64,000 nucleotides of DNA from Opitutales bacterium. GTDB lineage: Bacteria; Verrucomicrobiota; Verrucomicrobiia; Opitutales; PNEW01. Under the pieces are notes generated by a model. That model was given only the letters and a program-made list of their open reading frames with translations. It was not told the DNA's origin and ran no database searches. The position numbers and the translations under genes were made by a program. Of this stretch, positions 11,145 to 58,587 are shown piece after piece. Location: contig CBDANS010000006.1 in assembly GCA_965197745.1 (NCBI GenBank), positions 512,001-576,000 of the forward strand. Direction: 5' to 3'. Each line of letters starts with the position of its first letter. The first letter of the stretch is position 1.

Positions 11145-12494
11145 TGGAGTGACCCCCAAAAATGGTATCATTAACAGAGAGAGGTTATCGGGATAAACAG
11201 ATAACCTCATGAAAAGAAAAAGATACACAACAGAACAGATCATCGCAATACTGCGGCAAGCCGATACCGGAAAAACGGTAGAGGAAATCTGCCGAGGCAA
11301 CAACGTGAGTGAACAGACCTTCTATCGCTGGGGTAAAAAGTATGGCAATTTGGAACTAGCCGATGCGAAGCGATTTAAAGAGCTGGAAAAAGAAAACACC
11401 GAGTTGAAGAAGATGCTCGCTGATCAAATGCTTAAGAATCAGGTAATGGAGGAAACGCTGTCAAAAAAGTGGTGAGCCCCAAGCAGAAGAAGCGAGTAGT
11501 AAAAGATGCGGCTGAGAGAGGGCTGTGCTCGTTGCGAAGGGCTTGTTCCTACCTCAGCCTCAGTTGGTCAACTTTCAGCTACCAGCCCAAGCAGGCCAGT
11601 AAGAAAGCTCAGCGGTTGGCCGAGCGGATTATAACCCTGTCCTGGGAACATCCCTGCTACGGTTACCGGCGCATCCGTGCCTTGCTCGTAAAGGAAGGCT
11701 GGACAACAAACAGGAAGTTTGTTCAGGCGGTACGACGTTCAGAAGGGTTGCAGGTAAAGCCACCTAAAAAGCGTAGACACCGTCAAGGGGTCTCTACGGG
11801 GTCGCCTACTAAAGCAACCGGTCGCAATCACCTTTGGTCCTGGGACTTTGTCCATGATCGCACAGACCATGGCGGTCCATTAAAGATGATGACTCTGATC
11901 GATGTACCGAGGAGCTGAAAGCGACGACACTCAAGCGAAGCGAAGCCATATACGCGTGAATGTCTGGATATCCGGGTAGCTCGTCAACTCCCCTCATCGG
12001 ATGTCCTCTCTGTGCTTAGCGAGGCCATTGAAAAGGAGGGAGCTCCCAGCTATATCCGTAGTGACAACGGCAGTGTTCCGAGGAGCGAAGCGACGACATG
12101 CGAAGCCATTCATTGCTCATCAAGTGCAGCAGTCGTTGTCCGACAAAAAGATCAAGGCGATATATATCGATCCGGGCAGTCCCTGGCAAAACGGTTTCAT
12201 CGAGTCGTTTCACAACCGCTTACGCGATGAGTGTTTGAACCGTGAAGTGTTGCTCAGCGTGGCTGAAGCACAAGTTGTAATCGAACAATGGCGCCAGACC
12301 TATAACCATGATCATCCCCACAGTCGATTAGGCTTTAAAAGCCCACAAGAGTTTGTCACATTCCTTTCAGATCCTGGCCGCGTTCGGGCTACGCCCTCAC
12401 TTCGCCAAGATCTCTCATATACATCAATCCTAAAACCATTAATACCCGGGAACTCTCTCACTTAATAATTGGTACGAAAAACGGGGTCCAATCA
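11145..12494 (+). mobile_element. IS3-family element lineage A, copy 1 (orfA 11209-11475; orfB interrupted by two micro-insertions)
   Basis: TG...CA ends TGGAGTGACCCCCAAAAA / ACGGGGTCCAATCA; A6G slippery site at orfA/orfB; WSWDF, SDNG, PGSPWQNGFIESFH motifs. Confidence 0.93.
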
Positions 12495-12606
12495 CAAGGA
12501 TTGAAAGTAACGATGGGCTCTATGTTAGTTTCTTTCGGCGTGAGCAGAAGAACAGAAGTAAAGCCTACAGAACTTTGAATAAAATCAAAGAATTCGCAGT
12601 CTGATT
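12495..12606 (+). mobile_element. RAYT-derived MITE copy 4, right half only
   Basis: CAAGGATTGAAAGTAACG...GAATTCGCAGTCTGA directly abutting the IS3 IRR. Confidence 0.78.
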
Positions 12607-12665
12607 CTTTACGTTTGACCCTAACCCGTGCGCGCACAAACTATATTGTGTGGGAAAGACAAAAT

Positions 12666-13766
12666 TTAGTCTCCCAAGTCAAAAGATGTTTTTAGCTTTT
12701 GCTCTCGTTCAAATCTCTCAATAGCTAGCTGAATAAGTCGATCGATAAGTTCGGTGTAGGATATACCGCTTTCTTGCCACAGGCGCGGATACATACTGAT
12801 TTTTGTGAACCCAGGGATCGTATTTATCTCACTCACAACAAGGTCGCCACTTTCCTTCAAGAAGAAGTCTACTCGACCCAATCCTTCACACTCCAATACC
12901 TGAAAAGTCTTAATTCCCAATTCTTGAATCTTTTTCTTCACTTCCCCCGAGACTTCTGCGGGTATTATTAAAGCCGCTCCATTTTCGTCGATATATTTTG
13001 CTTCGTATGAATAAAATTCATGACTGGTTAGGATCTCGCCAGGAATTGAGGCAATTGGATTTTCATTACCAAGCACGGAGCACTCTATCTCTCGACCGAC
13101 AATAGCTTCTTCTACAAGAATTTTTAAATCGTATTGGAAAGCATCAAAAATAGCTTTTTCAAATTCCTCCTTATCCTTCACTTTGCTCACCCCTACTGAA
13201 GAACCGAGGTTTGCGGGTTTGATAAACACAGGCATGCCGAGTTCCTCACTTACTTTCTCAAAGCTAACGTCGTCGTTTTTCTTAAAAACAAGAAACTTCG
13301 CTACCGGAATTCCAGCACCTCTTAAAAGACGCTTCATTATGTCCTTATCCATGCCGATCGCAGAACCCAACACGCTGGCTCCTACAAAAGGAATATTGGC
13401 AAGCTTGAGAAGTCCTTGCACTGTTCCGTCTTCGCCAAATGGTCCGTGGAGAATCGGAAAAATCACATCTATCAATGTATCTGCTCGGTGCGTAGTGAGA
13501 TTTGAAATCTGACCATCGCTTTGCGGAGTAAGTGCAACATTGTCATATGACTTGTTGAGTTTAATAAGTTTGGGGTTATCACTATTTAGTAAAGGATTTT
13601 GGGTCACGCCGAGGAGCCATCTGCCATTCTTGTTTATGCCAATTGGTACAACCTCATACTTTTCCTTATCAATCGCATCAATGACATTTTTTGCTGACTG
13701 CAAAGACACTTCGTGTTCTGCGGATTTGCCGCCAATAAGTATTCCAACTCGAATTTTCGTTTTCAT
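12666..13766 (-). CDS. ddl: D-alanine--D-alanine ligase (DdlA type)
   Basis: GGKSAEHEVSLQSA, FPILHGPFGEDGTVQG, KPANLGSSVG, FYSYEAKY, EINTIPGFT. Confidence 0.95.
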   Translation of the reverse strand: MKTKIRVGILIGGKSAEHEVSLQSAKNVIDAIDKEKYEVVPIGINKNGRWLLGVTQNPLLNSDNPKLIKLNKSYDNVALTPQSDGQISNLTTHRADTLIDVIFPILHGPFGEDGTVQGLLKLANIPFVGASVLGSAIGMDKDIMKRLLRGAGIPVAKFLVFKKNDDVSFEKVSEELGMPVFIKPANLGSSVGVSKVKDKEEFEKAIFDAFQYDLKILVEEAIVGREIECSVLGNENPIASIPGEILTSHEFYSYEAKYIDENGAALIIPAEVSGEVKKKIQELGIKTFQVLECEGLGRVDFFLKESGDLVVSEINTIPGFTKISMYPRLWQESGISYTELIDRLIQLAIERFEREQKLKTSFDLGD

Positions 13767-13901
13767 AAGTACTTGGTATTCAAAACTCAAATTTTAACAA
13801 AAGTTATAAAGCTGATAGAGCAATACCTCTACCTGCATAATACTTGAGAAATTTTAAAGTCGATAACTTGTGGTTTTCTTGGGTGTTCAGTTAGTTGATA
13901 A

Positions 13902-13992
13902 GGGGTCAGGCTCGGCATGTGAACTGTCGTCCCGCAGTTTCGGGACTCGGTACTGGCATTTTACTATTTTACCGGAATGCAGGGCCTGACCC
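13902..13992. repeat. REP-like inverted doublet GGGGTCAGGC...GCCTGACCC
   Basis: Ends share GGGTCAG with the MITE TIR; internal GTCCCG/CGGGAC hairpin. Confidence 0.65.
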
Positions 13993-13999
13993 ATTTTAC

Positions 14000-14539
14000 T
14001 TATTTGTAATCTTCGCGCAATATAGAATACACAGCTAGATCTTCATATATTCCATCTTTAATTACCTGTTGTCTTAGCGTTCCCTCATACTTCATGCCAG
14101 ACTTAGACATAACACGACCAGATGCTGGATTTCTTGTGAAATGATGTGCGTGTATTTTGTTCAACTTAATTTTTTCAAATCCATATTGTATCAATGCAAT
14201 CGAAGCTTCAGTCCAATATCCTTTGTTCCAATATTTTCTGCCAATCCAATAACCCAATTCGGCCCGTCTGTGAGAATTATTTATACCTAAACTAATGCAA
14301 CCAATTAAACCGTCGTCTTTATTAGTTATAGCAAATGCAACGCCCTTACCGTTTGCACATTCTGTTTCCAGCATTCCGATCCATTGCTCAGCTATGCCAT
14401 CTTCATAAGGATGAGGAACAGTCAGTGTTGTTGACGCTATCTCTTTGTCTCCAGCTAATTCCTGCACTCGGTTAGCGTCGCTCAAAAGAAATGGTCGAAG
14501 AATCAACCTCGTTGTCTTCAGAATTGGTAAATTACTCAT
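14000..14539 (-). CDS. GNAT acetyltransferase, RimJ/RimL type
   Basis: LKTTRLILRPF, AELGYWIGRKYWNKGY, NPASGRVMSKSGMKYEG. Confidence 0.92.
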   Translation of the reverse strand: MSNLPILKTTRLILRPFLLSDANRVQELAGDKEIASTTLTVPHPYEDGIAEQWIGMLETECANGKGVAFAITNKDDGLIGCISLGINNSHRRAELGYWIGRKYWNKGYWTEASIALIQYGFEKIKLNKIHAHHFTRNPASGRVMSKSGMKYEGTLRQQVIKDGIYEDLAVYSILREDYK

Positions 14540-14592
14540 GAATTAAGTAACCTAAACTAACATACTGGCAGTTTAAGTATTTTTATTTGGAA

Positions 14593-14648
14593 GGGCTCAG
14601 GCTTCGCAACTCAACATTTTTATTTTTTGCTGAAATGCGAAGCCTGAC
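14593..14648. repeat. REP-like doublet TCAGGCTTCGCA...TGCGAAGCCTGA
   Basis: 12-bp inverted repeat; near-identical copy at 18908-18964. Confidence 0.7.
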
Positions 14649-14674
14649 TTCTTTTGTCTTATTTAAAGTACTTT

Positions 14675-15286: not shown

Positions 15287-15433
15287 GCAATAGATCCCTT
15301 ACTCACGGAGCCGCTGTTACCGAGAACCTGAGATCGGCGGCTCGTGCTCCGAGATGTCAATGACCGCGGGGGTGTTGCCGGTGGCCTGTATTCCCTCGGC
15401 GGCGCGCTTGTCACGTTGGCCACGTCAACCTCG

Positions 15434-17002: not shown

Positions 17003-17016
17003 GGCTCACTCCCCTC

Positions 17017-18986: not shown

Positions 18987-19910
18987 CTATCCAATGTTTT
19001 CATGTAAGAATTTTAGAACACGGTTCCAGGCATCAATACCAGCTTTAGATACATCCTTTGGGATACCTCCGAACTGGACTGACTCCTTACTAACAGGATG
19101 AATAACTTCCAGAACTGTTGTTGGAAAGAGTCCTACCGGAATGCTATGTCCAACGTTTTCGTAAGCTATATGTTTAAAGTAAAAAGGATGATCGTGTTCA
19201 TTTAACCGGAATATGGATACGTCTGAAAAAAACCTGGAAGACCAGATTCGGTCATCTTTCCCCGAGAAAAGTAGTATTGGTCCATTGATATTTTCCACGG
19301 GAATTATAGAAGCGCCCAAATCAGGATGTTCTTTCATAAAGGACGTATAGCCAGGCACACCACCGTCATTCCCGCTTATAACTAGTCCATCTTTGTATTT
19401 TTCTTGTAGTTCTTGTGAGTAATAAGGAATCGCTTCCCCTTTATATGTCCAAGCAGGTCTTACTTCTGGCGAGGATCCAAAGCCTCCAAATGTGATGCCA
19501 CTTGGAACATAACTAACAACTGCTTTAATGCTTGGATATCGGCTTCCCAGAATAAGCGCCAGTTCACCACCTCGGGATTTACCCACTACGCCGATTCTTT
19601 CACCATCAACAGGTTTCTGTTTTTTTAGCCAATCAATAGCATTTTCGAAATACTCCAAAGGAATATCATAGAGCTCATCTGGCAGGTTTTTTTCTTTAAA
19701 ATACGCTAGTGACAGAGCGGCAATTCCACGAGATGCTATGAGTTCAGATGGGAAATCATTATGCCCACCACCGGACCTTTCTAGAAATATTATAGCACCA
19801 AACGGGCCTTGCCCTTCAGGAATAAAGAGTGTCCCAACGAGACCGCTTTCTTTTACCGGTATTCTTGTAACTTCCGGACTTATTCTCAATCGTGAGATAG
19901 TTTTCGAAAT
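18987..19910 (-). pseudogene. Acyl-CoA thioesterase/BAAT-like alpha/beta hydrolase, 5'-truncated by IS3
   Basis: GLVGTLFIP, IPLEYFENAIDWL, GKSRGGELAL nucleophile motif; the ORF-track N-terminus is IS-derived. Confidence 0.85.
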
Positions 19911-21261
19911 TGGAGTGACCCCCAAAAATGGTATCATTAACAGAGAGAGGTTATCGGGATAAACAGATAACCTCAATGAAAAGAAAAAGATATACAACAG
20001 AACAGATCATAGCAATACTGCGGCAGCCCGATACGGGCAAAACCGTGCAGGAAGTCTGCCACGGCAACAACCTAAGTGAACAGACCTTCTATCGCTGGGG
20101 CAAAAAGTATGGCAACTTGGAGCTGGCTGATGCGAAGCGATTTAAAGAGCTGGAAAAGGAGAATACGGAGCTGAAGAAGATGCTCGCTGATCAAATGCTC
20201 AAGCTTCGGGTGTTGGAGGAAACGCTCTCAAAAAAATGGTGAGCCCAAAGCAGAAGAAGCGAGCAGTAAAAGATGCGGCTGAGAAGGGGCTGTGCTCGTT
20301 TTAGAGGGCTTGTGCTTATCTCAGCCTCAGTTGGTCAACGTACAGCTACCGACCCAAGCAGGCCAGTAAGAAGGCTCAGCAATTGGCCGAGCGGATTTTG
20401 ACCTTGTCCTGGGAACATCCCCGTTACGGTTACCGGCGCATTCGTGCCTTGCTGGTGAAAGAAGGTTGGGCGGCAAGCAGGAAATTTGTACAGGCAGTGC
20501 GACGTTCTTCGGGCTTACAGGTAAAGCCCCCGAAAAAGCGTAGACACCGTCAGGGGATCTCTACTGGGCTCCCTACTAAAGCAACCGGTCGCAATCACGT
20601 CTGGTCCTGGGACTTTGTCCATGATCGTACAGACAATGGCGGTATGCTAAAGATGATGACCTTGATCGATGTACCGAGGAGCTGAAAGCGACGACACTCA
20701 AGCGAAGCGAAGACATATACGCGTAAATGTTTACGCATCCGGGTAGCTCGACAGCTCACCTCAACCGATGTTCTCTCGGTACTCAGCGAAACCATCGATG
20801 AAGAGGGAGTTCCTAGCTATATCCGCAGTGACAACGGCAGTGTTCCGAGGAGCGAAGCGACGACATGCGAAGCCATTCATTGCTCATCAGGTGCAGCAGT
20901 GGTTGTCCGACAAAAAGATCAAGGCGATATATATCGATCCGGGCAGTCCCTGGCAAAACGGTTTCATCGAGTCGTTTCACAACCGCTTACGCGATGAGTG
21001 TTTGAACCGTGAAGTGTTGCTCAGCGTGGCTGAAGCACAAGTTGTAATAGAACAATGGCGTCAGACCTATAACAATGAACATCCCCACAGTCGATTAGGC
21101 TTTAAAAGCCCACAAGAGTTTGTCACATTCCTTTCCGCTCTTGGCCGCGTTCGGGCTACGCCCTCACTGCGCCAAGATCTCTCATATACATCAATCCTAA
21201 AACCATTAACACCCGGTAGTTCTCTCACTTAAAATTTGATACGAAATACGGGGTCCGATCA
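19911..21261 (+). mobile_element. IS3 lineage A, copy 2 (orfB with early TAG and two micro-insertions)
   Basis: Same TIRs and ORFs as 11145-12494. Confidence 0.93.
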
Positions 21262-21348
21262 CTGGGTATTTCTCCGTTTAATGACTTATATCATTTTATA
21301 TTTATCAAGCAATATTCACGTAGCAAGTGAAAGCAGTTAGATCGAATT

Positions 21349-27084: not shown

Positions 27085-28143
27085 GCGGTTAAAGCGGATG
27101 CTGGCGGACAAGCTGCTGGGGATAGAGATTCTGCAGGAGACCCTCGAAAAAAAACGGTAAGCCCTGGGCACAAGCGGCAAGTGGCAGAGAGACTTGTGGC
27201 CCGGGGCCAGTGTTCGATGCGTGGAGCGTGCCGATACTTTCACCTGCACCGCTCCACCTATGCGTATCGGGCGAAGTATCCGGATGCCTGGCTAACGAAA
27301 CTGAAGGCGGCAGTAAGGCGGTTATCACGGCAATACGCGAGGTGGGGCTATCCGAAGATCACGAAGCTGTTGAAAGACGAAGGCTGGGAGGTGGGTAAAC
27401 GTCTCGTGCAACGTCTACGACGCGAACTGGCCCTGGCGATCCCCCCACGCAAGCCAAGACGTCGGCGCAGGGGTGTTTCCACCGGGCTGCCGACCAAGGC
27501 CGAACATCCCGACCCTGTTTGGACCTGGGATTTTATCCACGACAAAACGGTCCGCGGTGGCAGTTTAAAAATGTTGACCATGCTCGATGAGTACACCCGC
27601 GAGTATCGAGTGATCCATGTTGATCGCCATATCAATGCGGAAACGGTGCGCGGTATCATGCAAAAACTGCTCGACCCTCATGGGCCGCCACAATATATTC
27701 GCAGCGACAACGGTTCCGTTCCGAGGAGCGAAGCGACGACATGCAAAGCCATTCATTGAAAAGGAATTGAGAGCCTGGCTAACTGCGATGAAAATCAAAA
27801 CCCTCTATATCGAACCAGGAAGCCCTTGGCAGAACGGATACATCGAATCGTTGCATGCCCGTTTTCGCGAGGAGTGTTTAAACCGTGAACAGCTATGGAC
27901 TTTGACCGAAGCCCGCGTGGTGATCGAGGACTGGCGCTGGCTTTACAATAATGTCCGACCCCACCGCAGCCTCGGCAATATCACCCCACGGTGCTTCGCT
28001 GAAGACATTAATACCGAAGGCTTGGGCTCCATTCGGGCTACGCCCTCATTGCGCCCAAGCCTTGACTTCCTCTACCAACTTAACTTCAACATTAACCTCT
28101 CCAGACTAACTCTCTCGGTGGACCAGTTTACGTAACCCGATCA
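27085..28143 (+). mobile_element. IS3 lineage B, 5'-truncated copy
   Basis: Near-identical to the corresponding part of 57271-58587; IRR GTGGACCAGTTTACGTAACCCGATCA. Confidence 0.9.
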
Positions 28144-35210: not shown

Positions 35211-36033
35211 TTGTGTCACAGGAATATTGGAATAATTACGCTCCAACTGAAGCGCTTCGGAATTGTGAGAATCCAGAAGACTACATTTACTATCTTTTAG
35301 TTTCTCAAACTCTCACGTCATTTCTGTCTAGTGTCGACTCTGTCCTTGACGTCGGTGGAGGTCCAGGCAGGTTCAGCCTGGATATCGCACCACATGTTAA
35401 AACAGTAGAACACATTGACTTTTCTCAGAAGATGCTCGACTTAGCGGTCAAAAAAGCCCGTAAGCTAGTAATTAAAAATATCAACTTCAAAAAAGTAGAT
35501 GCAAAAGACTTATCTCAATATTCCGACCAACAGTTTGATAAAGTTATTTCTATAAATACTCCAATTTCCTTCTCAGGACATGATTGGAAATTAGCTCTAA
35601 CTGAAATGTGCAGGGTTGCATCAAAAGCTGTTTTATTTACAGTATCAAATTTCATTTCAGCCTTCCCACGGTTGCTTGAAGTTTCACTAGAAAAGGACAT
35701 TGGATGGGACACCCTAGCAACTGAGTTATTTAACAATCATTTATTTGACAGAGAAAGAGGAAAGACTGTAGGTATCGATTTTCCATCGGTTCAATCGTTT
35801 CTCCCTGGAGAGATAGAACGAGAATTTTGGGATCTTGGTTTTCAGGTAAGGGATGTCCGAGGGTTAGCCATTCTATGTCGAATGATGAATCCTGAGCATT
35901 TAAAGACCATTATTAGTGATAAAAAACGGCTATCTTCTTTTCTCGAATATGAATCTATTCTCGCGACAGCGTATGGAAAGTGGGCACCATCACGTGAAAT
36001 TATGTTTATTGCTGAAAGAAAAGTTATAGGAAG
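35211..36033 (+). CDS. Class I SAM-dependent methyltransferase bounded by IS3 ends on both sides
   Basis: VLDVGGGPGRFS, IDFSQKML, VDAKDL; the ORF-track start and stop both lie inside IS DNA. Confidence 0.8.
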
Positions 36034-37305
36034 TGACCTGCACCCGATTACTGTACCAGAGCCAGTGTTAGTTCCGGCAGGGTGGTATGGGTTTTAATTT
36101 TCTTAGACATGGCTCTCTGGGCGTATTCGGCCGGAGGCCGATAGCCCAGAGAACTGTGTGGTCTTTGAGTATTATAATCAAGCCGCCAGGCTTCAAGTTT
36201 TTCTTTCGCTTCAGCGAGCGTACAAAATAGCTCGGTGTTAAGAAGTTCATCTCGTAAGCGTCCATTGAAGCTCTCAATATAACCATTCTCTACGGGTTTG
36301 CCTGGCCGGATAAAATCCAGCTTGATGCCATGGCCATAAGCCCATTCATCCAGTACTTTGCCGGCAAACTCGGGACCATTATCGACGGTAATGGTTTGGG
36401 GAAGACCGATTCCTTCAGCGGCTTTCGTCAGTGCTGCAGCGACTTTGCGCCCACCGATGGATGTATCGGCTAGAAGCAGTGGGCAAGCTCGGGTGTATTG
36501 ATCGACAACGGTGAGTATGCGGAAGGGGCGGCCGTTGGTCAGCCGATCGCTCATAAAGTCCATCGACCAGCGCTTCTGGGCAGCTGAAGCCGCAGGTAGT
36601 GAGACCCGCCTTTGCGCGGCACGCTTCTTTCGTTTCTTCGTGCGCACTTCCAGCCCTTCGGCCTTGTAGATACGATAAACGCGTTTCTTTCCTACCGTCC
36701 AGCCTTCCCGCTTTAATAACACCGTGATTCGCCGATACCCGTAGCGCACGCGCGCGGCGGCGAGGTCACGGATGCGCACGATCAGCGCACGTTCGTCCTT
36801 CTTCACAGGTTGGTAGTTATAACTCGACCAACACAACTGCATCAGCCTGCACGCCCGGCGTTTGCTCACCTCATAAGCTTCCACTAACCACTCAGCAATC
36901 ACCTTCTTGCGCACAGGCTTTACAACTTTTTTGAGATAACTTCCTGCAGCATATGCTTGTCCAGGCTTAGATCAGCCACCAGCTTCTTCAAACTAGTGTT
37001 CTCTTCGTCGAGTTGCTTCAGTCGTCTTAATTCGCTGATTCCCATGCCCGCGTATTTACCCTTCCAACCGTGGTAGGTCTGTTCGCTCACGCCTAACTCT
37101 CGACACACTTCGGCGATCCTTCGACCGCCTTCTACCTGCCTTAGGGCATAGATGATTTGTTCTTTATTATATCGTTTGTCAGGCCTTCTCGGCTGCGCCT
37201 CGTGAACCTTTGCTTTTCATGGATGGTTCTTTCTCTTATTTTTATTAGGTTTTCCACCCACGCCAGACTAAATCTTTCCTGGTCCAGTTTTACGGGGACA
37301 GGTCA
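36034..37305 (-). mobile_element. IS3 lineage C (IS407-like), full length with 3-bp AAG duplication; orfA interrupted
   Basis: TIRs TGACCTGCACCCG / CGGGGACAGGTCA; orfA 37220-36920; A6G slippery site. Confidence 0.93.
36048..36914 (-). CDS. IS3 transposase OrfB, intact DDE domain
   Basis: [27 protein letters not shown]. Confidence 0.92.
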
Positions 37306-37477
37306 AAGGGTGTTAATGGTTTTAGCTGCACTTGGGACAATCGTCTTCAGTCTCTCCCATAAATACACTGACAGCTATTACGCTGCGGCGGTTTTATGTA
37401 TGAGCTTTTCCCTCATCCTGTTTTTATTCTCATTGAAGATAAATAATCCCCAGGAAAAATTTGCACCTTCTCCATAA
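37306..37477 (+). pseudogene. Two-TM tail resembling an MFS transporter C-terminus
   Basis: VLAALGTIVFSLSHKYTDSYYAAAVLC resembles MFS helices 11-12. Confidence 0.5.
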
Positions 37478-40055: not shown

Positions 40056-40735
40056 AGGGCTTCAGAATATCGACGAAGAAAACAGAATCAGCAGCATTGC
40101 AAGAGACTCTCGTTGCCGTTTTAGGCAATGATGTTCCAGGCGTTCAAAAACTGCTCGCTGATTATCTTCTGAAAATTGAAGCCCTGCAGATAGTCTTGGG
40201 AAAAACCATCTAAGCGCGGAGCGATAGCGTGGCGTTGTTGAATTAGCTCAGCAGGCATTGTCGTGTTCGTAGTGGGCTCTATACCGCTGGCGGAGATTCA
40301 GCAGCTTGACCCTGCCCACCGCTTCAAACCTGTAACCGATAAGAAGCCGTTGCTGGTGACTGCAATCGTTTGCCTGTCACGGAAACACTTAACCATTGGC
40401 TACAAAAATTCAATCAAATGCTGGGTGAAATAGTCTCCTAGGTAAACAAGAAACAGGACTGCACATACGCCGCTAAGAGGGACTGCCAGTATCGCTGTAA
40501 AAACTTCGAAAGCAACTACAGCGACCTGTCCACGGGTATGCCTCAAGAGGCCAAACACAGGAATCACGTGTAGGCGTGGGATTTCGTTTAGGACTACACC
40601 CAAAGTGGCGGCAAACTGCGTGTTTTCAGCATCATCGATGTACCGAGGAGCCGCAGGCGATGACACTCGAGCGAAGCGAAGACATAACCACGTGAATGCC
40701 ATATGCTTCATGCACACAGCGCGATCAAGGCAGCC
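40056..40735 (+). mobile_element. Highly degenerate IS3 (fourth lineage, D)
   Basis: EEENRI.., LLAD..LKIEALQ, NHV.AWDFV.D.T..GGKL.VFSIID remnants. Confidence 0.7.
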
Positions 40736-42070
40736 TGGTCGGGTTAAGCAAACTGGTCCACCGGGAGAGTTAGTCTGGAGAGGTTAATGTCGAAGTTAAG
40801 TGGGTAGAGGAAGACAAGGTTTGAGCGCGTAGACCGAATGGAGACCGAGCCTTCTGTATTGAGGTCTTCAGCAAAGCGCCGTGGGGTGATATTGCCGAGG
40901 CTGCTGATGGGGGGCGGACATGATGGTAAAGTCAGCACCAGTGCTCGATCACAACGCGTGCTTCGGTTAAAGTCCATAACTGTTCACGGTTTAAACACTC
41001 CTCGCGAAAACGGGCATGGAAAGATTCGATGTATCCGTTCTGCCAAGGACTTTCTGGTTCGATATAGAGGGTTCTTATTTTCATCGCAGCCAGCCAGGCT
41101 CGCAATTCCTTTTCAATGAATCGCTTCGCATGTCATCGCTTCGCTCCTCGGAACGCAACCGTTGTCGCTGCGAATATATTGTGGCGGTCCATGCCTCTCG
41201 ATCATTTTTTGCATGATACCGCGAACGGTTTCCGCGTTGATATGGCGATCGACATGGATGACCGGACATTCGCGGGTCTACTCGTCGAGGATGGTCAGCA
41301 TTTTGAGACTCCCACCGCGGACCGTTTTATCGTGGATAAAATCCCAGGTCCAAACATGGCCGGGATGTTCGGCTTTTGTCTGCAGGCCGGTGCAGACACC
41401 CCTGCGTCGGCGTCTTGGCTTGCGTTGGGGGATCGCCAAGCCCAGTTCACGTCGCAGACCTTGCACGAGACGTTTACCCACATGCCAGCCTTCGTCCTTC
41501 AACAGCTTCGTGATCTTGGGATAGCCCCACCTGGCGTATTGCCGTGATAACCGCCTTACTGCCGCCTTCAGTTTCGTTAGCCAGGCATCCGGATGCTTGG
41601 CCTTATACGCATAGGTGGAACGGTGCAGGTGAAAGTATCGGCACGCTGCACGCATCGAACACTGGCCCCGAGCCACAAGTCTCTCTGCCACTTGCCGCTT
41701 GTGCCCAGGGCTTACTACCGAGCGTAAGCGACATCTACCATTTTTTTTCGAGGGTCTCCTGCAGGATCTCTATCCCCAGCATCTTATCTGCCAGCATTCT
41801 TTTTAGCCGCACGTTCTCCTTCAAAGAGCTCTTTCATCCGCTTGGCCTGGTTGACATCAATCATTCCAAACTCACGCTTCCAGCGGGGGAAGGTCTGTTC
41901 GCTGACGTTGTTCTCCCGGCACACTTCCTGGATCGATTTACCCCTGTCTGCTTGCCGCAATATCCGTATCTTCTCTTCGGTGGTGTATTTTTTTGCCTTT
42001 CATTGTCTGAGTCCTTTCTAGGTTACCCAGACTAACTTTTCAAGTGTACCAGTTTTCGTGGTCACGACCA
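40736..42070 (-). mobile_element. IS3 lineage B, full length but degenerate
   Basis: Both TIRs present; many indels versus 57271-58587. Confidence 0.9.
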
Positions 42071-42339
42071 CCAGTGATGAAAATATACTCCAATGATATC
42101 CAGCTACAGATAATGATTTCATGGTAAATCACATTGATTATAATTACTAAGCTTCGAACTAAGCCGATAGACTTAATCAGAAGTAAGTAGTAATTTGTTG
42201 GTATTTTAAAAAATAGTCAAAATGATTGGACTGCTATGAGTCACAAGTCCCACCAGAACTTACCATCGTTTCGAGTTATTAGCACATATCGGTGTTGGCC
42301 ATTGAATGGTATACCACCCCGTCGGATCTAAAACTGACT

Positions 42340-48542: not shown

Positions 48543-50660
48543 TCAGTAGTTTGACCGGCTACGATCAAAAAAGAATTGTTCGGGTCGGGCAATGCCGGGG
48601 GTTTGCAAGGTTGCGCTGTTGGGTGCAACATCGGGAACATTTCGAAAATTATTTTTAACCACGACAACGCCGTTCAAAGCAGGTGTCTGTCCGACGGTGC
48701 CAATAACATACAGGTTGTTTGAATGGATTCTCCACAATTCTTTTCCCAGTTCCGTACGCATCGCTTTGGGTAGACTATTACCTTCCTCAAATATCTCCAG
48801 CAAATGTTTAAGATCGCCGGAAGGCGCCACGCCCTTTTGACCGTCAGTTAAATACCATAAGCCGATGAGCGGGGCGAAAGCACCGCGAAGGATAGGTATG
48901 GTCATATTGGGGTAAGTCCACGGGTTTTCAGAACCGCCACTATACCCCATGTTAAGTTGGTGTTCGTTGTTTCCTCGCCGTCTACCATAGTAACCTCCCC
49001 CTTCAACGCTTAAATGTAATTTTAGGCCGACATCATTCCAATGATTCACGAGAAGTTCAGCTATACTTTGAAAATCTACTAACGCCTGAGTCGGTATTGA
49101 GAGGGTAATCGTCAGACGTTCGTTATTGTCAGTGCGCAGGCGGTATCCTTCACTGTCCTTTTTATCTAAACCGATAGCGTCGAGGATCGCGTTGGATTGT
49201 TCCAGGTTGCGAACCGCATGCTTTTTCTCATATTCAGGACCGGGATAATACGGGTTGTTCGGGAAGGGGAGGAAGGCTCTTGGCTTGCCCATTCCAAGAA
49301 AAATCGATTCGTGTATCTCCTCTCGATCAATGGCAAGAGAGAGGGCTATCCGAAAATCGCGGCTTCTAAGCCACTTTTCTATTTCGGTATCTCCACGCCA
49401 GGTTTGGTTAACATAGATGATGCCGTCGGAACCTCCTAAATTTGGCCAGAAGAGTACGCGGTAGTCACCCTTGTCTGCTTCCCGCTTGAGCACCGGGACT
49501 TTGTCTAAACGGATATGACGATGTTGCATATCCACCTCCCCGGCCATGACGCGTGCATTGAACACCTCGGTGTCCTCAAAGAAGCGCATAACAATCTTGT
49601 CGATATAGGGAAGCTGATTCCCTTCGGGATCGACGGCAAAGTAATAGGGGTTGCGCTCCAAAGAATAATTTTCACTGGTTATCGGAGTGACCATCTTCCA
49701 TGGCCCGACCACCGGTATTTCACGGTTCCTGTGGGGTGAGGCCATGCGTTTGAAGAGTTGCACCCAACTTCTGTCCCCCGTTGCTTTTATTTTATTTTGC
49801 AGTTCACTTAAGGGGGTGTACTTCGGGAGAAACTGCATTAAGTAATGCCAGGGAGCGTAGAGAGGACTTTCCCATCGGCGAACGAACTGGCCACCAACGT
49901 TTAAACCAGCAACATTCTCGATGAACACATAGTTGGGTTTATGAAAGGTATAACGAACTGTGGTCTCATCTAACTTTTCCACTTTGAATAGTTGCCCATT
50001 CGCTTTTGTGTAGCTGAATTTTACCGGGTTGATATTATCATTCAATGTTACATCTTCGAAGGCGAAAACAAAGTCATCAGCCGTGAAAGGCGCTCCATCA
50101 GACCACTTCATTCCCTGGCGCAGATGGAAAGTGAATGTTGTCCCGTCTTCGCTGATATCCCATGATTTTGCGATGTGAGCCATCAGGGCATAGCCATCGA
50201 GGTCAAAGTAAATTAAGTGATCATGTATAATCCGATCCATGTTGTTAGTATCAAGCCCCGTAAAACCGCGGCGCCAGGTGCCGCCGTATTGACCGATGCG
50301 TTCGATAGGCGGAATAATCAATGGCTCTTCCGGCAGGCGGTCTTCTACCGGAGGCAATTCCCCCGCGGCAACGCGCTTCGCCAGTTCAGGAGCTTCACTG
50401 AATGTCGTGGGTGTCGGACCCTTATAAATAAAACTGAATCCCTCAGTACTGACATATTCAGGCTGAGTTACTTCAGGTTCGTGTGAAAGTGAAGGTGGAG
50501 CATCCCTGGAACAACCGAACGGATTACTTATTATAAGAATTAAGAAAAAAACAAGTGACCCCCAATCGATTGCCGATTGCGGATTTGGAAGATGTCGGGC
50601 TTCGCCCTCGGTACTGATTGCGGATTGATCAGAATGCACGATACAGGATCCATGATGCAC
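48543..50660 (-). CDS. ABC transporter peptide-type (family 5) substrate-binding lipoprotein, orphan; true start uncertain
   Basis: FGC lipobox-like, EAPELAKRVAAGELPPVEDRLP, FHLRQGMKWSDGAPFTADD, ERNPYYFAVD. Confidence 0.88.
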   Translation of the reverse strand: MHHGSCIVHSDQSAISTEGEARHLPNPQSAIDWGSLVFFLILIISNPFGCSRDAPPSLSHEPEVTQPEYVSTEGFSFIYKGPTPTTFSEAPELAKRVAAGELPPVEDRLPEEPLIIPPIERIGQYGGTWRRGFTGLDTNNMDRIIHDHLIYFDLDGYALMAHIAKSWDISEDGTTFTFHLRQGMKWSDGAPFTADDFVFAFEDVTLNDNINPVKFSYTKANGQLFKVEKLDETTVRYTFHKPNYVFIENVAGLNVGGQFVRRWESPLYAPWHYLMQFLPKYTPLSELQNKIKATGDRSWVQLFKRMASPHRNREIPVVGPWKMVTPITSENYSLERNPYYFAVDPEGNQLPYIDKIVMRFFEDTEVFNARVMAGEVDMQHRHIRLDKVPVLKREADKGDYRVLFWPNLGGSDGIIYVNQTWRGDTEIEKWLRSRDFRIALSLAIDREEIHESIFLGMGKPRAFLPFPNNPYYPGPEYEKKHAVRNLEQSNAILDAIGLDKKDSEGYRLRTDNNERLTITLSIPTQALVDFQSIAELLVNHWNDVGLKLHLSVEGGGYYGRRRGNNEHQLNMGYSGGSENPWTYPNMTIPILRGAFAPLIGLWYLTDGQKGVAPSGDLKHLLEIFEEGNSLPKAMRTELGKELWRIHSNNLYVIGTVGQTPALNGVVVVKNNFRNVPDVAPNSATLQTPGIARPEQFFFDRSRSNY

Positions 50661-52171: not shown

Positions 52172-52228
52172 GGTCAGGCTTTGCATCTTGGCATTTTTTA
52201 ATAATTGCATAGATTCAAAGCCTGACCC
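52172..52228. repeat. REP-like doublet GGTCAGGCTTTG...CAAAGCCTGACC
   Basis: Same end type as 13902, 14593 and 18908. Confidence 0.7.
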
Positions 52229-52288
52229 TTTTAATTTCCTGTGTTAAATCAAGTTTCCTCTCAGTTACTGTCGTGAGAAAGAACGAAA

Positions 52289-52476
52289 ATGAGCACCGAT
52301 CAGTCACCGACTAAGTCTTACCGCGCCACGGCCTTTGCCGACGCCAAGACGCCAAACCCGAGCTAGCGGCGCCCGGGGCCACTCCGGAGCGGCTGGCCCA
52401 CCTGGAGGAGCATGGCTTCGTCATCATCACCGACTTTGTCAACAACCCGTGGATCCCCCATTCTCCGTGAGGCAGC
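52289..52476 (+). pseudogene. N-terminal fragment of a PhyH-like gene
   Basis: ERLAHLEEHGFVIITDFVNNPWIPILREA, with a frameshift upstream. Confidence 0.55.
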
Positions 52477-52959
52477 ACTCCCACTGGCGGCGGTTCCACC
52501 ACGGTCCCCGCAGCCGTCCCCCATAATACAGGACCTGACTTCTGCCCTGCGCGTCCAGGCGCTGGCGTTGGATCATTAAACTCTGCCGTTGTCGACTTAC
52601 ACTGCGTTGGCGCTCCTCGGCTTCGCTCGGGACATAGACTACACTGAATGCATCCTTGTTGCCGTTGAGATAACGGTCCAAAGACAGGGCCATTTTACGG
52701 GCATCGCGTTGGTCGGTTTTGACTTTCTTGCCATACTCGTCCCAGTCGCGGGGACGGATCACGTAGTTTTGCACTCCCAGCTCCTTTAAGCGCCTATGCA
52801 AGCCGTATCCAAACGGTCCGGCTTCATAGTAGCTGACTACGCGGTGGGCTTCCTTCACTTGTTCTTCTACCCATTTTAGAAACGAAGGGGGACTGAACCG
52901 GCGGGGCGCTTTTGGCGTAGCTGCGTCCACCATCATGACCACCACATAGCGGTCGATAT
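52477..52959 (-). pseudogene. IS110-family transposase fragment (DEDD domain)
   Basis: YEAGPFGYGLHR, KVKTDQRDA; 5' end cut by IS3, Tnp20 domain absent. Confidence 0.85.
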
Positions 52960-54309
52960 TGATGTGACCCCCAAAAACCGTATCATTTACAGAGAGAGAT
53001 TATCGGAATAAACAGATAACCTCAATGAAAAGAAAAAGATAACCAACAGAACAGATCATATCAATACTGCAGCAAGCCGATACCGGCAAAACGGTAGAGG
53101 AACTCTGCCGTGGTAACAACCTAAGCGAACAAACCTTCTATCGCTGGGGTAAAAAGTATGGCAACTTGGAGCTGGCCGATGCGAAGCAATTTAAAGAGCT
53201 GGAAAAAGAAAACACCGAACTGAAGAAGCTGTTGCTGATCAAATGATCAAGAACCAAGTCTTGGAGGAAACGTTCTCATAAAAAGGGTAAGCCCAAAGCA
53301 GAAGAAGCGAGCAGTAAAAGATGCGGCTGAGAGAGGGCTGTGCTCGTTTTAGAGGGCATGTTCCTATCTCAGCCTCAGTTGGTCAACGTTCAGCTATCGG
53401 CCCAAGCAGACTAGCAAGAAAGCCCAATGATTGGCCGAGCGGATTGTAACTTTGTCCTGGGAACATCCGCGCTACGGTTATCGGCGCATCCGTGCCTTAC
53501 TGGTAAAGGAGGGCTGGACAACAAGCAGGAAGTTTGTCCAGGCAGTACGAGGTGCAGAGGGCTTACAGGTAAAGCGAACGAAAAAGCGCAGCCCCCGTCA
53601 AGGGGTCTCAACAGGGCTCCCCACTAAAGCAAAAGAACGCAATCACGTTTGGTCCTGGGACTTTGTCCATGATCGCACAGACAATGGCGGTCCATTAAAG
53701 ATGATGACCTTAATCTATGAATACACACGTATATGTTTAAGCCACCGGGTAGATAGACAGCTCACCTCAACCGATGTCCTCTCTGTGCTTAGCGAGGCCA
53801 TCGAAGAGGAGGGAGCTCCTAGCTATATGCGTAGTGACAACGGCAGTGTTCCTAGGAGCGAAGCGACGACATGCCAAGCCATTCATTGCTCATCAAGTGC
53901 AGCAGTGGTTGTCAGACAAAAACATCAAGGCGATCTATATCGATCCAGCCAGTCACTGGCTACCGAGCGAAGCGACACCTCAACGAGCCATAGCGAGAAT
54001 AACAAACGGTTTCATCGAGTCGTTTCACAACCGCTTACGCGATGAGTGTTTGAACCGTGAAGTGTTGCTCAGCGTAGCTGAAGCGCAAGTGGTAATCGAA
54101 CAATGGCGTCATAATTACAATAATGAACATCCCCACAGTCGTTTAGGCTTCAAAAGCCCACAAGAGTTTGTCAGATTCCTTTCCGATCTTGGCCGCGTTC
54201 GGGCTACGCCCTCACTTCGCCAAGATCTCTGCTATACACCAATCCTAAAACCATTAACACCCGGTAACTCTCTCACTTAAAAATTGGTACGAATAACGGG
54301 GTCCGATCA
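52960..54309 (+). mobile_element. IS3 lineage A, copy 3 (degenerate; two micro-insertions)
   Basis: TGATGTGACCCCCAAAAA...ACGGGGTCCGATCA; stops in orfA and orfB. Confidence 0.92.
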
Positions 54310-54680
54310 CAGCCCCTGGATTGAGACAAAGCGATAATGCAGAAGATTGTCTAATTTTCACAAATCCAGACTGGAGGCAGCGTTACGAAATGCTTCCAGT
54401 TTTCCACTATAATAGCGGCGAAACCATGTTGGTAATACAAGGTTTTCCAAACGGAGACAAATTAACAAAATTTATTAAGTTGTATCTAGTTTCTTATGTG
54501 TTGGGCATGATTGCAAGGTACCTTCCATCCAAGTGGCTTTCCTTGCTACGAAATGAGAAGGGTGATTTTGCACAGCCACTTCTAGTTGGTGCGACGGAAG
54601 AACTTGAAATGAACTTTGCCAAAGAATTTTCAAACCAGTTACACAGTGTTCTACGGAAAATCCCTAATGATGTGAAATAA
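54310..54680 (+). pseudogene. C-terminal fragment of a YaaC-like protein truncated by IS3
   Basis: YLVSYVLGMIARYLPSKWLSLL motif. Confidence 0.55.
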
Positions 54681-55114
54681 AAGGGATAATAGTTCATTTA
54701 GATCAGTGAGATATTAAAGACATAAAAGAGGTTTTGTATTGTGGATAGCTATGATCAACCAATGAACCCGTTGTTGAGTTCAGGCGAACCTGCATCAATA
54801 GACTAAATGCATGAAACTGTGGACGTATAGACAGAAGCATGTTCATGACAACGAGTAGTTTCACCTAAGCTGCTATTGAGAAGAAGCCAATCGAGATAGT
54901 TTAGCTACAATTGACCTTGTGGATGATGACCAACTGACGTATAAGCTCAAAGAATTAGTTTTTGGTGTGAAAACAGAACTTGTGGAAAAGGTGACTGTAG
55001 ACCCTGATTGGTTCCTAGCACTGTGACTTAGGATGACATAGTTTGGGAATTATATATTCGACGATCTCAAAAGTAAGGTAACATAAACAGAAATCAAATT
55101 AGAACATATCGTGG

Positions 55115-55500
55115 TTTAAACAAGAAAAGTGTATTTTGCAGGGGAATTATTCAGCCTCAAAGATTTTATAGACAACGCAGTATTAGCCGCTGTGATCAAT
55201 GAGGGATCAGAAGGGCGTTGTAGCTGCGTTTTACCCAGACCTTGGAGCAGCGTGATACGACGGCCATAAGTATTCGCGATCAGGATATCAAAACGCTTAT
55301 GCATGACACACTGTGAAACGTTCCTTACGAGAAAAGAACACAAGACCTGGCCTTTCGAATCATGTGTACTAGCTACGACTTGATCTGAAAAACACTGCTG
55401 GATCAAATCGCAACTCGGTTTGACAACAACATTGAAAATTTTCTTTTCAACTTTCGTTCAACCAAAAATTTGCTGCCGGAAGTTGAGAAGAAAATTTTCA
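55115..55500 (+). pseudogene. Nucleoside 2-deoxyribosyltransferase-like pseudogene
   Basis: KVYFAGELFSLKDFIDNAVLA...CVLP, frameshift, LEQRDTTAISIRDQDIKTL. Confidence 0.6.
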
Positions 55501-55559
55501 TACAAGCGGCTCTTGTAGCTGACACTGTCCGTAATATCATATACCGATTTGTACAAATC

Positions 55560-55997
55560 ATGCCTATGAGATTTAACCCGTCCTGGCGTTATTGGAAGAC
55601 ACCCGTGCTCTTTGGTGCGGGCTTATGCATACTGCAAACCTTGGTGGCCATCGTGCGATTCGGCGGCAGGGAGAGTTGGAATCCGATCATCCTGTTGGAG
55701 ATACCGTTCATTCTGTTAGGGCTCATCATGTTCTTCCTGTGCGGCCTGTTGATTGGGTTGCTGGTGCAACGGCTATTGAAGGGCTCTAGTGGAGCTTGGC
55801 GCAGTACCTTGATGGTCGCTGTTGCACTAGCAACTCCACTTGCAGTTTGGTTCAGTTTAGTTGGAGGGTTGCTCGGCCCGCCTGGCATACTGTTCGGAGC
55901 GCTGATTCCCTATCTCCTCCTGGTCGGGATTCTGGTGTTGATCCATACCTGCTGCTTGCGTTTGGCAAGATCACGCGTTGCTAAAAAGCGGTCTTGA
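55560..55997 (+). CDS. Small multi-pass membrane protein, unknown function
   Basis: About four hydrophobic helices; ORF open from 55470. Confidence 0.6.
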   Translation: MPMRFNPSWRYWKTPVLFGAGLCILQTLVAIVRFGGRESWNPIILLEIPFILLGLIMFFLCGLLIGLLVQRLLKGSSGAWRSTLMVAVALATPLAVWFSLVGGLLGPPGILFGALIPYLLLVGILVLIHTCCLRLARSRVAKKRS

Positions 55998-57270
55998 GTT
56001 GCTAGGCTAGAGTCGCCCTTATTCAAATCCGATTATCACACTGCTGAAAAATACGTTTTGATGGTTTCCCATTTCTAAAAATCTTTTTTTGAGTTTGCGC
56101 TTAATCTGTTTGGAGAAATAAGCCAAATCGCCTATTCGCCCCTGATAGCTGCACTCATTGATGCCTGGGCATCCCTGGGCTGAGACTTTAGGGTAGACAC
56201 TGAACTGTTGATGGAGAAAAGAGGGAACACCTCGAATTTGATCCTGCTACCCTGCAAGCCGCTTGGATGGTTTCTGGACAAACTGTCGATTGGCAACTGC
56301 ATTTTACAGTTCCTCATGACAGAATTTTATTTCGAGGGGTAGCTGTTTCGGCGCTATTTTCAGAACCTTCCTGGATCTGAGAGATGGTCAAGGAGGGGTG
56401 GTTTTTTTTGCGCCAGATTGCTGCCGCCAATATTGTCATTTTTTATGTCTGTCGTATCTCTTTGTACAACGGTGAACTGTAGACACACTTAAAAAAGGAG
56501 AGGGAGGATCGACACGATCCTCTCTTATCGATCAGCCCATCAATTAAGGGGTTGTTTTAGGTTGTCTACAATGAAGGCCAACCTGTGGACACATAAAAAA
56601 AGAGCGCCTGGTAGTTTGAAGGTTGCCTGAGCAGACCGTTATTGGCGACAGTGTGCACGGACCAAAAGAGGACGGACCTAAGAGAGACCTTGGAGGGCGA
56701 CCCGCACAATCATTATTATGTCCAGTTGATTTGTAAATTATTGATATTCAACATATTAATTTTATACATAAAATTCCTAACGGTCTTATAACGCCGCTAA
56801 TTAAGGAGTAAGCCCCAGTATAACACTCTGATTAAGCCGGGTTGATATACTCGTTGCATACTCACCACGACCCGTGATTTAGGGTTGTCACCTTCTTAGG
56901 ACGAGAGCATGTCTTGAGCAGTCTCCTTGCCCCGCCATCGCTTTAACCGTGCCCTTAGAAGTAGATCATGTTTCAAGGGGGCGGGGGGGTGCGCGATCAG
57001 AAGATATACCGCCAGTCATACTATCGATTTACTCACCGGAAAATATATTTACAAAGGACAAGGTTTGGCAGCAAAAATAATTTTAAAAGAACCACGCTTA
57101 AATTGGCTCTAAAATGTACGATCACTCTTCGTTAGGAACCCAATTTACTGTCTTAAGATGCAAACACCCTTTCTCGAGGCTCTCAGAGCCCTTCACGGGC
57201 AAATCAAATCATTGGTGGTGCTTCAAAAAATTCACCCCGCAAAGAGTAAACCAGCCAGCACTATGACAGG

Positions 57271-58587
57271 TGGTCGTGACCACGAAAACTGGTCCACTTG
57301 AAAAGTTAGTCTGGTCCAACTAGAAAGGACACAGACAATGAAAGGCAAAAGATACACGACCGAAGAGAAAATACGGATGCTGCGCCAGGCGGACAAAGGG
57401 AAAACGATCCTGGAAGCATGCCGCGAGAACAACATAAGCGAACAGACCTTCCACCGCTGGAAACGTGAGTTTGGGATGATTGATGTCAACCAGGCCAAGC
57501 GGATGAAGGAGCTCGAGAAGGAGAACGCGCGGTTAAAACGGATGCTGGCGGACAAGATGCTGGGGATAGAGATCCTGCAGGAGACCCTCGAAAAAAAACT
57601 GTAAGCCCTGGGCACAAGCGGCAAGTGGCAGAGAGACTTGTGACTCGGGGCCAGTGTTCGATGCGAGCGGGGTGCCGGTACTTTCGGCTGCACCGTTCCA
57701 CCTATGCGTATAGGGCCAAGCATCCGGATGCCTGGCTAACGAAACTAAAAGCGGCAGTAAGGCGGTTATCACGGCAATACGCGAGGTGGGGCTATCCCAA
57801 GATCACGAAGCTGTTGAAGGACGAAGGCTGGCAGGTGGGTAAACGTCTCGTGCAAGGTCTGCGACGTGAACTGGGTCTGGCGATCCCCCCACGCAAGCCA
57901 AGACGCCGGCGCAGGGGTGTCTGCACCGGGCTACCGACAAAGGCCGAACATCCCGACCATGTTTGGACCTGGGATTTTATCCACGATAAGACGGTTCGCG
58001 GCGGCAGTCTAAAAATGCTGACCGTGCTCGATGAGTACACCCGCGAGTGCCGGGTGATCCATGTTGATCGCCATATCAATGCGGAAACGGTGCGCGGTAT
58101 CATGCAAAAACTGCTCGACCGGCATGGGCCGCCAAAATATATTCGTAGCGACAACGGTTCCGTTCCGAGGAGCGAAGCGACGACATGCAAAGCCATTCAT
58201 TGAAAGCCAATTGAGAGCCTGGCTAACTGCGATGAAAATCAAAACCCTCTATATCGAACCAGCAAGCCCTTGGCAGAACGGATACATTGAATCGTTCCAT
58301 GCCCGTTTTCGCGAGGAGTGTTTAAACCGTGAACAGTTATGGACTTTGACCGAAGCCCGCGTGGTCATCGAAGATTGGCGCTGGCTTTACAATCATGTCC
58401 GACCCCACCGCAGCCTCGGCAACATCACTCCACGGCACTTCACTGAAAACCTCAATACCGAAGGCTCGGGCTCCATTCGGGCTACGCCCTCATTGCGCCC
58501 AAGCCTTGACTTCCTCTACCAACTTAACTTCAACATTAACCTCTCCAGACTAACTCTCCCTGTGGACCAGTTTGTGTAACCCGACCA
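57271..58587 (+). mobile_element. IS3 lineage B, full length (orfA 57338-57604; orfB broken only by a 32-nt insertion)
   Basis: TGGTCGTGACCACGAAAACTGGTCCAC / GTGGACCAGTTTGTGTAACCCGACCA; A8 slippery run; DDE motifs. Confidence 0.94.

Follow-up and report, generated by a model that had tools for sequence, protein, structure and literature searches.

We analyzed a 64,000-nt window of an Opitutales genome (G000:C6:512001-576000; the source genome comprises 4.45 Mb on 7 contigs and is 92% complete), in which seven copies of IS3-family insertion sequences (ISs) hold twelve short inserts within their transposase genes. In our best reading, these inserts belong to a family of micro-elements that enter at the DNA level, prefer (G/C)/AR/(T/A) targets, and have disabled most IS3 copies of the genome. 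They are probably mobile DNA elements of very small size, non-autonomous, whose family resembles repetitive extragenic palindromic (REP) sequences and extends across the Opitutales. The twelve segments had been listed in an initial annotation of the window made from its sequence alone; all of them are present where it had placed them, and eleven start with the heptamer T(A/T)CCGAG.

Element borders were set by aligning insert-free flank queries to the whole genome, which recovered both filled and empty alleles for sites S1, S2 (in three lineages), S3, S4, and S6, the last being a new site at LRD/E/CLN. In every case aligned, x-AA-y or x-AG-y of the empty allele corresponds to x-[T(A/T)CCGAG...(C)CA]-y in the filled one, such that the element swaps out two target bases, AA or AG, usually within a Glu codon. 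At S1, S2, and S6, all in conserved motifs, the swapped pair corresponds to positions 2–3 of a Glu codon. The base 5′ of the pair is G or C, and the base 3′ of it is mostly T. Entry takes place in DNA, in a fixed orientation, and at loose (G/C)/A-R/(T/A) sites from which the A-R dinucleotide is lost. The consequences for the reading frame differ by site: the 44-nt element at S1 adds a net 42 nt, in frame, and contains a TGA; the 33-nt element at S2 (net +31) and the 37-nt element at S6 (net +35) shift the frame; the 44-nt element at S3 (net +42) stays in frame and open; and the 25-nt element at S4 (net +23) lies antisense and adjoins the A8 frameshift run. An independent contig of another sample repeated the rule at S6, with 2 nt exchanged for 37 nt. 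These alignments place the 3′ ends 1–2 bases further than the initial annotation had, and deletion at its exact borders leaves the translation out of frame; the borders were reset from the empty alleles.

Site S5 belongs to the same family, as had been proposed, but not to the same type. Its 28-nt insert is a distinct subtype that starts with TTCACGAGG, its empty alleles read AAAGG/CAAACG, and its net gain is +28; an insert of 27–28 nt resembling S5 is also found in orfA, beside a native TACCGAG. The left flanks of inserts share no constant tetranucleotide (GATG, AGTG, TCCG, TGGC, CGGC, ATCG, CCAC, and TTAC were all seen).

The inserts are real, neither a product of chance nor an assembly quirk. 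Filled and empty forms are both present in DNA run X1 and in the RNA-library runs X15 and X16 (RNA runs were examined as contigs, which drop rare forms and cover the stretch only in part). In an unbiased census of indels based on genome self-BLAST, with hits chained and net insertions of 15–110 nt between repeat copies retained, 86 of 97 indel clusters carried the heptamer, and all 86 of those lay within IS3.

The carriers are members of the IS3 family, with HTH_Tnp_1 in orfA, HTH_21 and rve_3 in orfB, and an A8 run at the orfA/orfB overlap; their ends read TGG...CCA or TCA, and the flanks differ at each copy. By eye, IS3 ends and element ends show no similarity beyond TG/CA-type termini. A tblastn search with an intact orfB yielded 115 places, 96 of which cover at least 200 residues. 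At least one element is found in 78 of these 96 (one in 40, two in 30, three in 3, and four in 5) and none in the remaining 18, four of them intact; the earlier statement that every near-complete IS3 bears an insert therefore holds within the window, but not genome-wide. S2 is filled in 73 IS3 copies, S1 in 32, S6 in 12, S3 in 11, and S4 in 7.

Comparison with the remaining repeats confirmed that inserts are absent from other IS families and from repeated host genes: IS3-like repeat segments (89; 116,281 bp) hold 148 elements—a count inflated by amplification of already-filled copies—versus 0 in other repeats (62; 77,807 bp), which comprise ~31 copies of five other IS types and ~28 copies of a host secreted-protein domain. 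Since an estimated 15–20 or so independent site-by-lineage events are to be set against five IS families with ~7 kb of unique sequence, this contrast is a modest one. The secreted-protein repeat occurs at ~28 places (e.g., C5:166905-168081) as a segment of ~1.1–1.3 kb encoding a conserved C-terminal domain (..ITTQPASQEVQSG..DDLTYQWYTGNSGD..).

Copies of lineage C exist side by side in the filled and the empty state. Thirteen near-identical 1.3-kb copies occupy different loci, four of them empty and intact (orfA of 100 aa, orfB frame of 354 aa) and nine with S2, and each of two backbone haplotypes is found in both states, arguing for either recombination between copies or repeated insertion. 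Three bases downstream of S2, noted at window positions 27718–27755 and in the lineage C copies, TTC goes with the filled state and TTT with the empty one; this association has an exception, an RNA-run contig of another sample that combines an empty site with TTC. In lineage A, 21 aligned copies bearing S1 and S2 have intact ends, different flanks and loci, and a median pairwise identity of 0.98. Being at different loci, these copies either moved after they were hit or were hit after they moved. The sister genome G060 contains ~30 lineage A copies in which S1 and a 27-nt orfA insert are the sole breaks, and at least two S1-empty copies with an uninterrupted 346-aa orfB frame (scoring covered 40 of 158 candidates), indicating that transposase could be supplied in trans there.

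The initial annotation had considered the inserts as possible parasites of IS3. They are indeed tiny, non-autonomous presence/absence insertions at recurrent sites, but they are not restricted to this family: the short-form pattern T[AT]CC[GT]AG.{5,26}GACA[TC]C has 116 genome matches (versus 6 for a backwards control), of which 19 lie in IS3 places and 97 outside, so that the copies in non-IS DNA that the annotation had thought would speak against its proposal do exist. The outside form reads TACCGAG-stem-loop-GACATCTTCCA and falls into size classes of 19 nt (28 copies), 23 nt (36), and 30 nt (17). One context is a palindromic miniature inverted-repeat transposable element (MITE) of 150–200 nt with the ends TTGTCATTGCGAGGAGC...GCTCCTCGCAATGACAA, whose empty site is GACGCGGC/AA/TCCAGG. 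In a second, short repeats of the CAATCG type lie on either side, and a start codon frequently follows within some tens of bases; a third adjoins ATAGCCAC...AAAGGCAC repeats. We detected no family-like copies inside host genes; those within long stop-to-stop frames are located upstream of the start codon.

Among MITEs (examples at C6:916370-916560, L016, and C6:596100-596700, L017), the short element occupies a single fixed position in 54 matches to the end motif, and the hairpin variants at that site differ between MITE copies. The MITE arm GCGAGGAGC-AAC-GCGACGCGGCAATCCA aligns with the long-form micro-element, and a common origin of the two is therefore possible. Searches of five MITE and intergenic loci against Rfam at E up to 5 returned chance-level microRNA and snoRNA matches only, and no known ribozyme or intron was found by Rfam.

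Three long-form copies reside in 3′ pieces of tRNAs that are duplicated immediately behind tRNA-Asn and tRNA-Gln, placed exactly in the T-loop sequence, GGTTCG/AA/TCC. At C6:355395-355700 (L001) and C5:236386-236615 (L002), the intact tRNA-Asn or tRNA-Gln gene is followed by a conserved ~65-nt spacer and then by one or two units, each consisting of an inverted T-arm copy, the element, and the tRNA's final 18 nt with the CCA; in the T-loop GGTTCGAATCC, AA has given way to the element. Similar tRNA-linked units are present in metagenome-assembled genomes (MAGs) of Puniceicoccaceae and Woeseiaceae (L071, L076, L141). Such units could be displaced fragments of attachment (att) sites or the natural target of the element. 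This arrangement, in which the duplicated 3′ ends that follow tRNA-Asn and tRNA-Gln harbor copies, is reminiscent of the RtT RNA of E. coli (RF00391); as the family of these loci, RtT was rejected at 23.7 bits against a gathering threshold of 45 (E 0.3).

The description of the inserts as hairpins applies to the intergenic relatives, with stems of 4–7 bp, but is weak for the IS-borne copies, which fold no better than shuffled sequences under standard DNA parameters. Pairing is retained in 22–26 of 26 distinct sequences of the intergenic 23-nt class, with changes from G-C to A-T, T-A, and C-G. Stem lengths of the 19-, 23-, and 30-nt classes are 2, 4, and 6–7 bp, several stem sequences occur in the 30-nt class, and a stem of at least 3 bp is found in 38% of copies versus 6% of shuffles. 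The long forms in IS3 have GC-GNA-GC-type mini stems of 2–3 bp with GNA loops, flanked by G/A mismatches. Across lineages the S1 stem has changed in a compensatory manner, from GCT..AGC to GCC..GGC in the copy within the IS3 fragment next to lineage D. DNA mini-hairpins of the GCGNAGC type are reported to be unusually stable. On the complementary strand, GCGACGACA or GCGACATC places CGTC or TGTC next to the stem; the element closes with a (C)CA tail and has no invariant GTAG, and CTAC appears only where the flank ends in C.

Beyond the source genome, the long-form core CCGAGGAGC-N3-6-GCGACGACA was found in 44 of 401 sampled Opitutales genomes and 27 of 133 genera, with a single match for the backwards control. 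In other genera the core usually runs on as ..(A/T)GACCGG-variable hairpin-ACCGGACCA and is intergenic. Two further genomes have elements in IS3: G114 carries a different variant at the same DNGP/E/F site of another IS3, and G241 an element in the C-terminal region of an IS3. In G114, a 976-nt contig (L004, G114:C56:1-976) reads ...ITVDNGPE, then a run of N, and then repeats the region with the element at DNGP/E/F; it may be an assembly bubble that retains both alleles. A scan of one genome per species identified family-like copies at 14 Verrucomicrobiota loci and at 5 Woeseiaceae loci, the latter in T-loop-like tRNA 3′ fragments. Among named public genomes, those that share it are MAGs of Opitutales, Puniceicoccaceae, and Coraliomargarita. 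Of the 107 loci in this public scan, which used an 18-base core, ~85 were discarded as chance or coding matches in high-GC taxa (e.g., one Collinsella gene, repeatedly).

A RAYT (REP-associated tyrosine transposase)-type enzyme is the most likely candidate for the mover. The initial annotation had suggested looking for a co-occurring HUH/Y1 or reverse transcriptase gene, and the former was found: the RAYT-like model NF047646 has three matches, the best at C7:1451512-1451892 (87 bits; cut-off, 80), and a second Y1 gene (C6:163380-163706) reaches 66.6 bits, under the cut-off, with REP-associated tyrosine transposase as its best model. RVT_1, on the other hand, has no match in the 92%-complete genome, and a retro-mechanism was set aside. 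RAYT-like matches are present in 39 of 44 motif-positive genomes versus 147 of 357 others, which lends weak support because kinship links the genomes and both features are missing from small ones. The region around the best RAYT (C7:1451100-1452100) holds another REP, GCCACGACGGAGCGTGGCCCTCCA plus its inverse, which is also near many intergenic micro-element copies; a CYTCCA-type tail is common to both repeats.

The features of the window are compiled in Table 1; at gathering thresholds, Rfam detected a single tRNA in it and nothing else.

Table 1 Micro-elements and their carriers in the 64,000-nt window (positions count from its first base).
Feature	Position	Strand	Remarks
S1 element, 44 nt, TACCGAG...GAAGCCA	11905..11948	+	IS3 lineage A orfB at LID/E/YTRE
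S2 element, 33 nt, TTCCGAG...GCGAAGCCA	12076..12108	+	SDNGS/E/F, directly after second catalytic Asp motif
S1 element, second lineage A copy	20672..20715	+	Covered ungapped by RNA-run contig record 17
S2 element, second lineage A copy	20843..20875	+	
S2 element, lineage B copy	27719..27751	+	Target has its own TTCCGAG
S5 element, type II, 28 nt, TTCACGAGG...GGCCTGA	37179..37206	-	orfA codon 5, distant IS3 lineage
S1-type element	40641..40684	+	In IS3 fragment adjoining lineage D copy; 39-40/45 identical to lineage A S1
S2 element, lineage D copy	41121..41153	-	IS on minus strand
S4 element, 25-nt short form, TACCGAGCGTAAGCGACATCTACCA	41716..41740	+	Antisense to transposase; swaps AG beside A8 run
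S2 element, decayed (TTCCTAG...)	53849..53881	+	
S3 element, 44 nt	53961..54004	+	PW/Q/NG; in frame, stop-free
S2 element, lineage C copy	58163..58195	+	Four otherwise identical empty intact copies elsewhere in genome
Intergenic short form, TACCGAG-GGGC GAA GCCC-GACATCTTCCA	50586..50613	-	Between CAATCG-type repeats; family member outside IS3
IS3 lineage A copy	11141..12616	+	orfA HTH_Tnp_1, orfB HTH_21 + rve_3, TG..CA ends; belongs to a set of 21 aligned copies
Second IS3 lineage A copy	19907..21266	+	
IS3 lineage B copy, partial repeat segment	27085..28148	+	
Distant IS3 lineage bearing S5	36030..37306	-	
IS3 lineage D copy bearing S2 and S4	40730..42075	-	
IS3 lineage A-like copy bearing S2 and S3	52957..54314	+	S1 site empty
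IS3 lineage C copy bearing S2	57280..58591	+	Left border approximate
Inverted pair of 1.6-kb IS, transposase frame of ~422 aa	3769-5548, 6562-8351		12 genome copies, all without micro-element

How such a family might operate can be outlined from these data. An element consists of a conserved single-stranded 5′ head T(A/T)CCGAG, a short stem-loop in which pairing is kept and sequence varies, a GAC(G)ACA box, and a (C)CA tail, to which long forms add a second small stem-loop 3′ of the box. A host HUH/Y1 transposase of the RAYT type would move it, acting on single-stranded DNA. Copies would persist only where they are harmless, that is, in intergenic DNA, the palindromic MITE, displaced tRNA 3′ fragments, and IS3. 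Within IS3 they sit at few spots, for the most part at Glu codons in conserved motifs of the transposase, where a frameshift or a stop disrupts the gene. Broken copies could then come to outnumber intact ones if transposase from a few intact sisters still mobilizes them, and the filled state may also be copied among near-identical IS copies by recombination.

Several observations sit uneasily with this scheme. Supply of transposase in trans is not apparent for two lineages of the 92%-complete source genome itself: lineage B (94% protein identity to lineage C) is represented by filled copies only, and every lineage A copy here has at least two elements, none being insert-free. Every site in IS3 is occupied by a variant peculiar to it and found nowhere else in the genome, which random hits from one pool would not predict. 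The IS-borne copies, folded as DNA, reach minimum free energies of just -0.6 to -2.3 kcal/mol (z +0.2 to +1.6 versus shuffles), and the 87 intergenic copies show no orientation bias relative to neighboring genes (26 vs 28) and no clear link to GC skew. As to the enzyme, the two-base swap departs from the IS200/IS605 and REPIN (paired REP) models; T(A/T)CCGAG elements are absent within ~900 nt of the best RAYT, which is instead flanked by the other REP (GCCACG..CGTGGCCCTCCA) with a CCTCCA tail; and no element copies lie beside the Y1 gene at C6:163380-163706. A RAYT-type enzyme is therefore no more than the likeliest candidate.

The distribution over IS3 could also be read as host defense, with a domesticated RAYT/REP-type system purposely inserting into IS3 transposase motifs to silence the most active IS family. 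The concentration of elements in IS3 repeats and the high share of copies hit fit this idea, as do the long-form variants S1, S2, S3, and S6, which are restricted to IS3 in this genome, the co-occurrence of RAYT-like genes with the motif, and the fact that one site has been hit in IS3 lineages at 43% protein identity and in another genus. However, the 97 short-form copies outside ISs are at odds with it, the contrast with other repeats shrinks once amplified copies are discounted, no targeting component was identified in our analysis, and purifying selection alone accounts for the absence from host genes. No result here requires defense, and we regard purposeful silencing as unlikely. A related proposal, to which we likewise assign little weight, is that the long forms are not random hits but constitute a matched set, one variant per IS3 site, nearly invariant (32/33) between IS lineages otherwise diverged to about 50–65% identity, with selection acting on the element; they might then act as a reversible DNA switch by which the IS or a host RAYT-type enzyme turns transposase genes off and on, or as a dedicated anti-IS3 insertion system that recognizes T-loop-like G/AR/T.

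Immobile scars are a further option, each site having received one ancient hit that then spread by vertical descent, IS amplification, and recombination. In keeping with this, filled copies within a lineage share one element sequence, the same lineage A inserts are common to two sister genomes, and the combinations of S1, S2, S3, and S6 could arise by recombination shuffling. The S2 element, however, matches at 32/33 positions when lineages A and B/C are compared, while the 150-nt flanks have diverged to 72–100/150 (48–66% identity); homology is therefore too low for conversion between lineages and element divergence too low for an ancient neutral insert. This contradicts a single inherited insertion at S2, a possibility already raised in the initial annotation, and points either to repeated entry of the same variant into the same site or to selection on the element. 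Together with the different variant at the same site in another genus and the differing hairpins at one MITE site, it makes old scars quite an unlikely account of the inserts.

The annotation had lastly entertained removable or bypassed elements, that is, regulatory cassettes whose removal from mRNA, or from DNA in some cells, or whose bypass by ribosome hopping or readthrough, would let filled copies make transposase. Translational bypassing elements are known from phage T4 gene 60 and, as "byps", from Magnusiomyces mitochondria, and the inserts resemble them as 25–55-nt inserts in coding sequence with small hairpins and, at S1, a stop soon after entry. Dozens of near-identical filled copies with otherwise open frames, among them the ~30 of G060, would suit such cassettes, as would the conservation of the element, which far exceeds that of its flanks; at S1, moreover, the codon AGC before the TGA recurs in frame 7 codons downstream. 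The inserts differ from bypassing elements in that the frameshifting ones vary from site to site and that they lack a consistent codon pair, coexist with intact copies, and leave no processed form in RNA contigs. The shifts at S2, S6, S4, and S5 put the frame out, inspection by eye of S1, S2, and S6 revealed no slippery sites or matched codons in common, and no take-off/landing codon pair is common to S2, S6, S4, and S5 (the AGC..AGC of S1 was noted by inspection only). RNA-library contigs span S1 ungapped and carry S6, and those of X15 to X17 contain no element-removing joint, a weak observation given that contigs lose rare forms. The one RNA-run contig that lacks S2 represents an empty allele, because it has AG there, and a filled sequence cannot be turned into this by any one deletion; plain excision would leave the site 2 nt short. 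Because RNA contigs keep the inserts and intact sister copies exist, splicing or bypass is not needed, and we consider removable cassettes very improbable.

Returning to mobile REP-like elements as the favored explanation, several known systems invite comparison. Mini elements derived from IS200/IS605, such as PATE (palindrome-associated transposable element)-like ones, have a fixed tetra- or pentanucleotide on their 5′ side and lose nothing upon insertion, whereas here the flanks vary and 2 nt are swapped. Perhaps the nearest analogue is found in heterocystous cyanobacteria, whose small dispersed repeats, attributed to Elhai et al. 2008, are reportedly ~20–30 nt long, apparently mobile, and nested in other repeats, with the enzyme not known; they belong to another phylum and have another sequence.

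REPs and REPINs share with the present family a length of 20–45 nt, ~100 dispersed copies, some in inverted pairs within a larger palindrome, RAYT-like genes, and subfamilies defined by stem and loop; they also appear to share a short stem-loop between conserved unpaired flanks, a CCA-type tail, and TGTC or CGTC abutting the stem on the complementary strand. They differ in that the present elements have a 7-nt head, T(A/T)CCGAG, and no GTAG tag, swap two target bases, give clean filled and empty sites as single units rather than doublets, and do not flank the local RAYT, which has another REP beside it. In Di Nocera et al. 2013 (PMC3733652), REPs tagged with GTAG and with CGTC/TGTC have CCA tails, and Opitutus terrae, of the same order, has the most intragenic REPs. 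As presented there, these intragenic copies decorate host genes in frame, in contrast to the disruption of transposase genes seen here; the same paper mentions Rickettsia palindromic elements, which are likewise short palindromic repeats inside protein-coding genes, but are in frame and leave functional proteins, whereas S3 alone is in frame and stop-free in our set (PMC3733652). According to Bertels & Rainey 2011 (PMC3116915), REP doublets rather than singles are the mobile unit, singles are immobile remnants, and clean insertion events are few. Searches of the open-access full-text literature did not turn up any account of REP-like units located within transposase genes of IS3.

The movement of REP-type repeats has puzzled researchers for a long time, and the present family makes both target rule and enzyme directly testable, because it offers dozens of exact single-unit filled and empty sites, a simple rule, and few hot spots. 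It also points to a route by which a whole IS family may be progressively disabled while its dead copies continue to spread, which bears on the IS load of symbiont genomes. Were the targeting of IS3 active rather than passive, it would provide a function for domesticated RAYTs.

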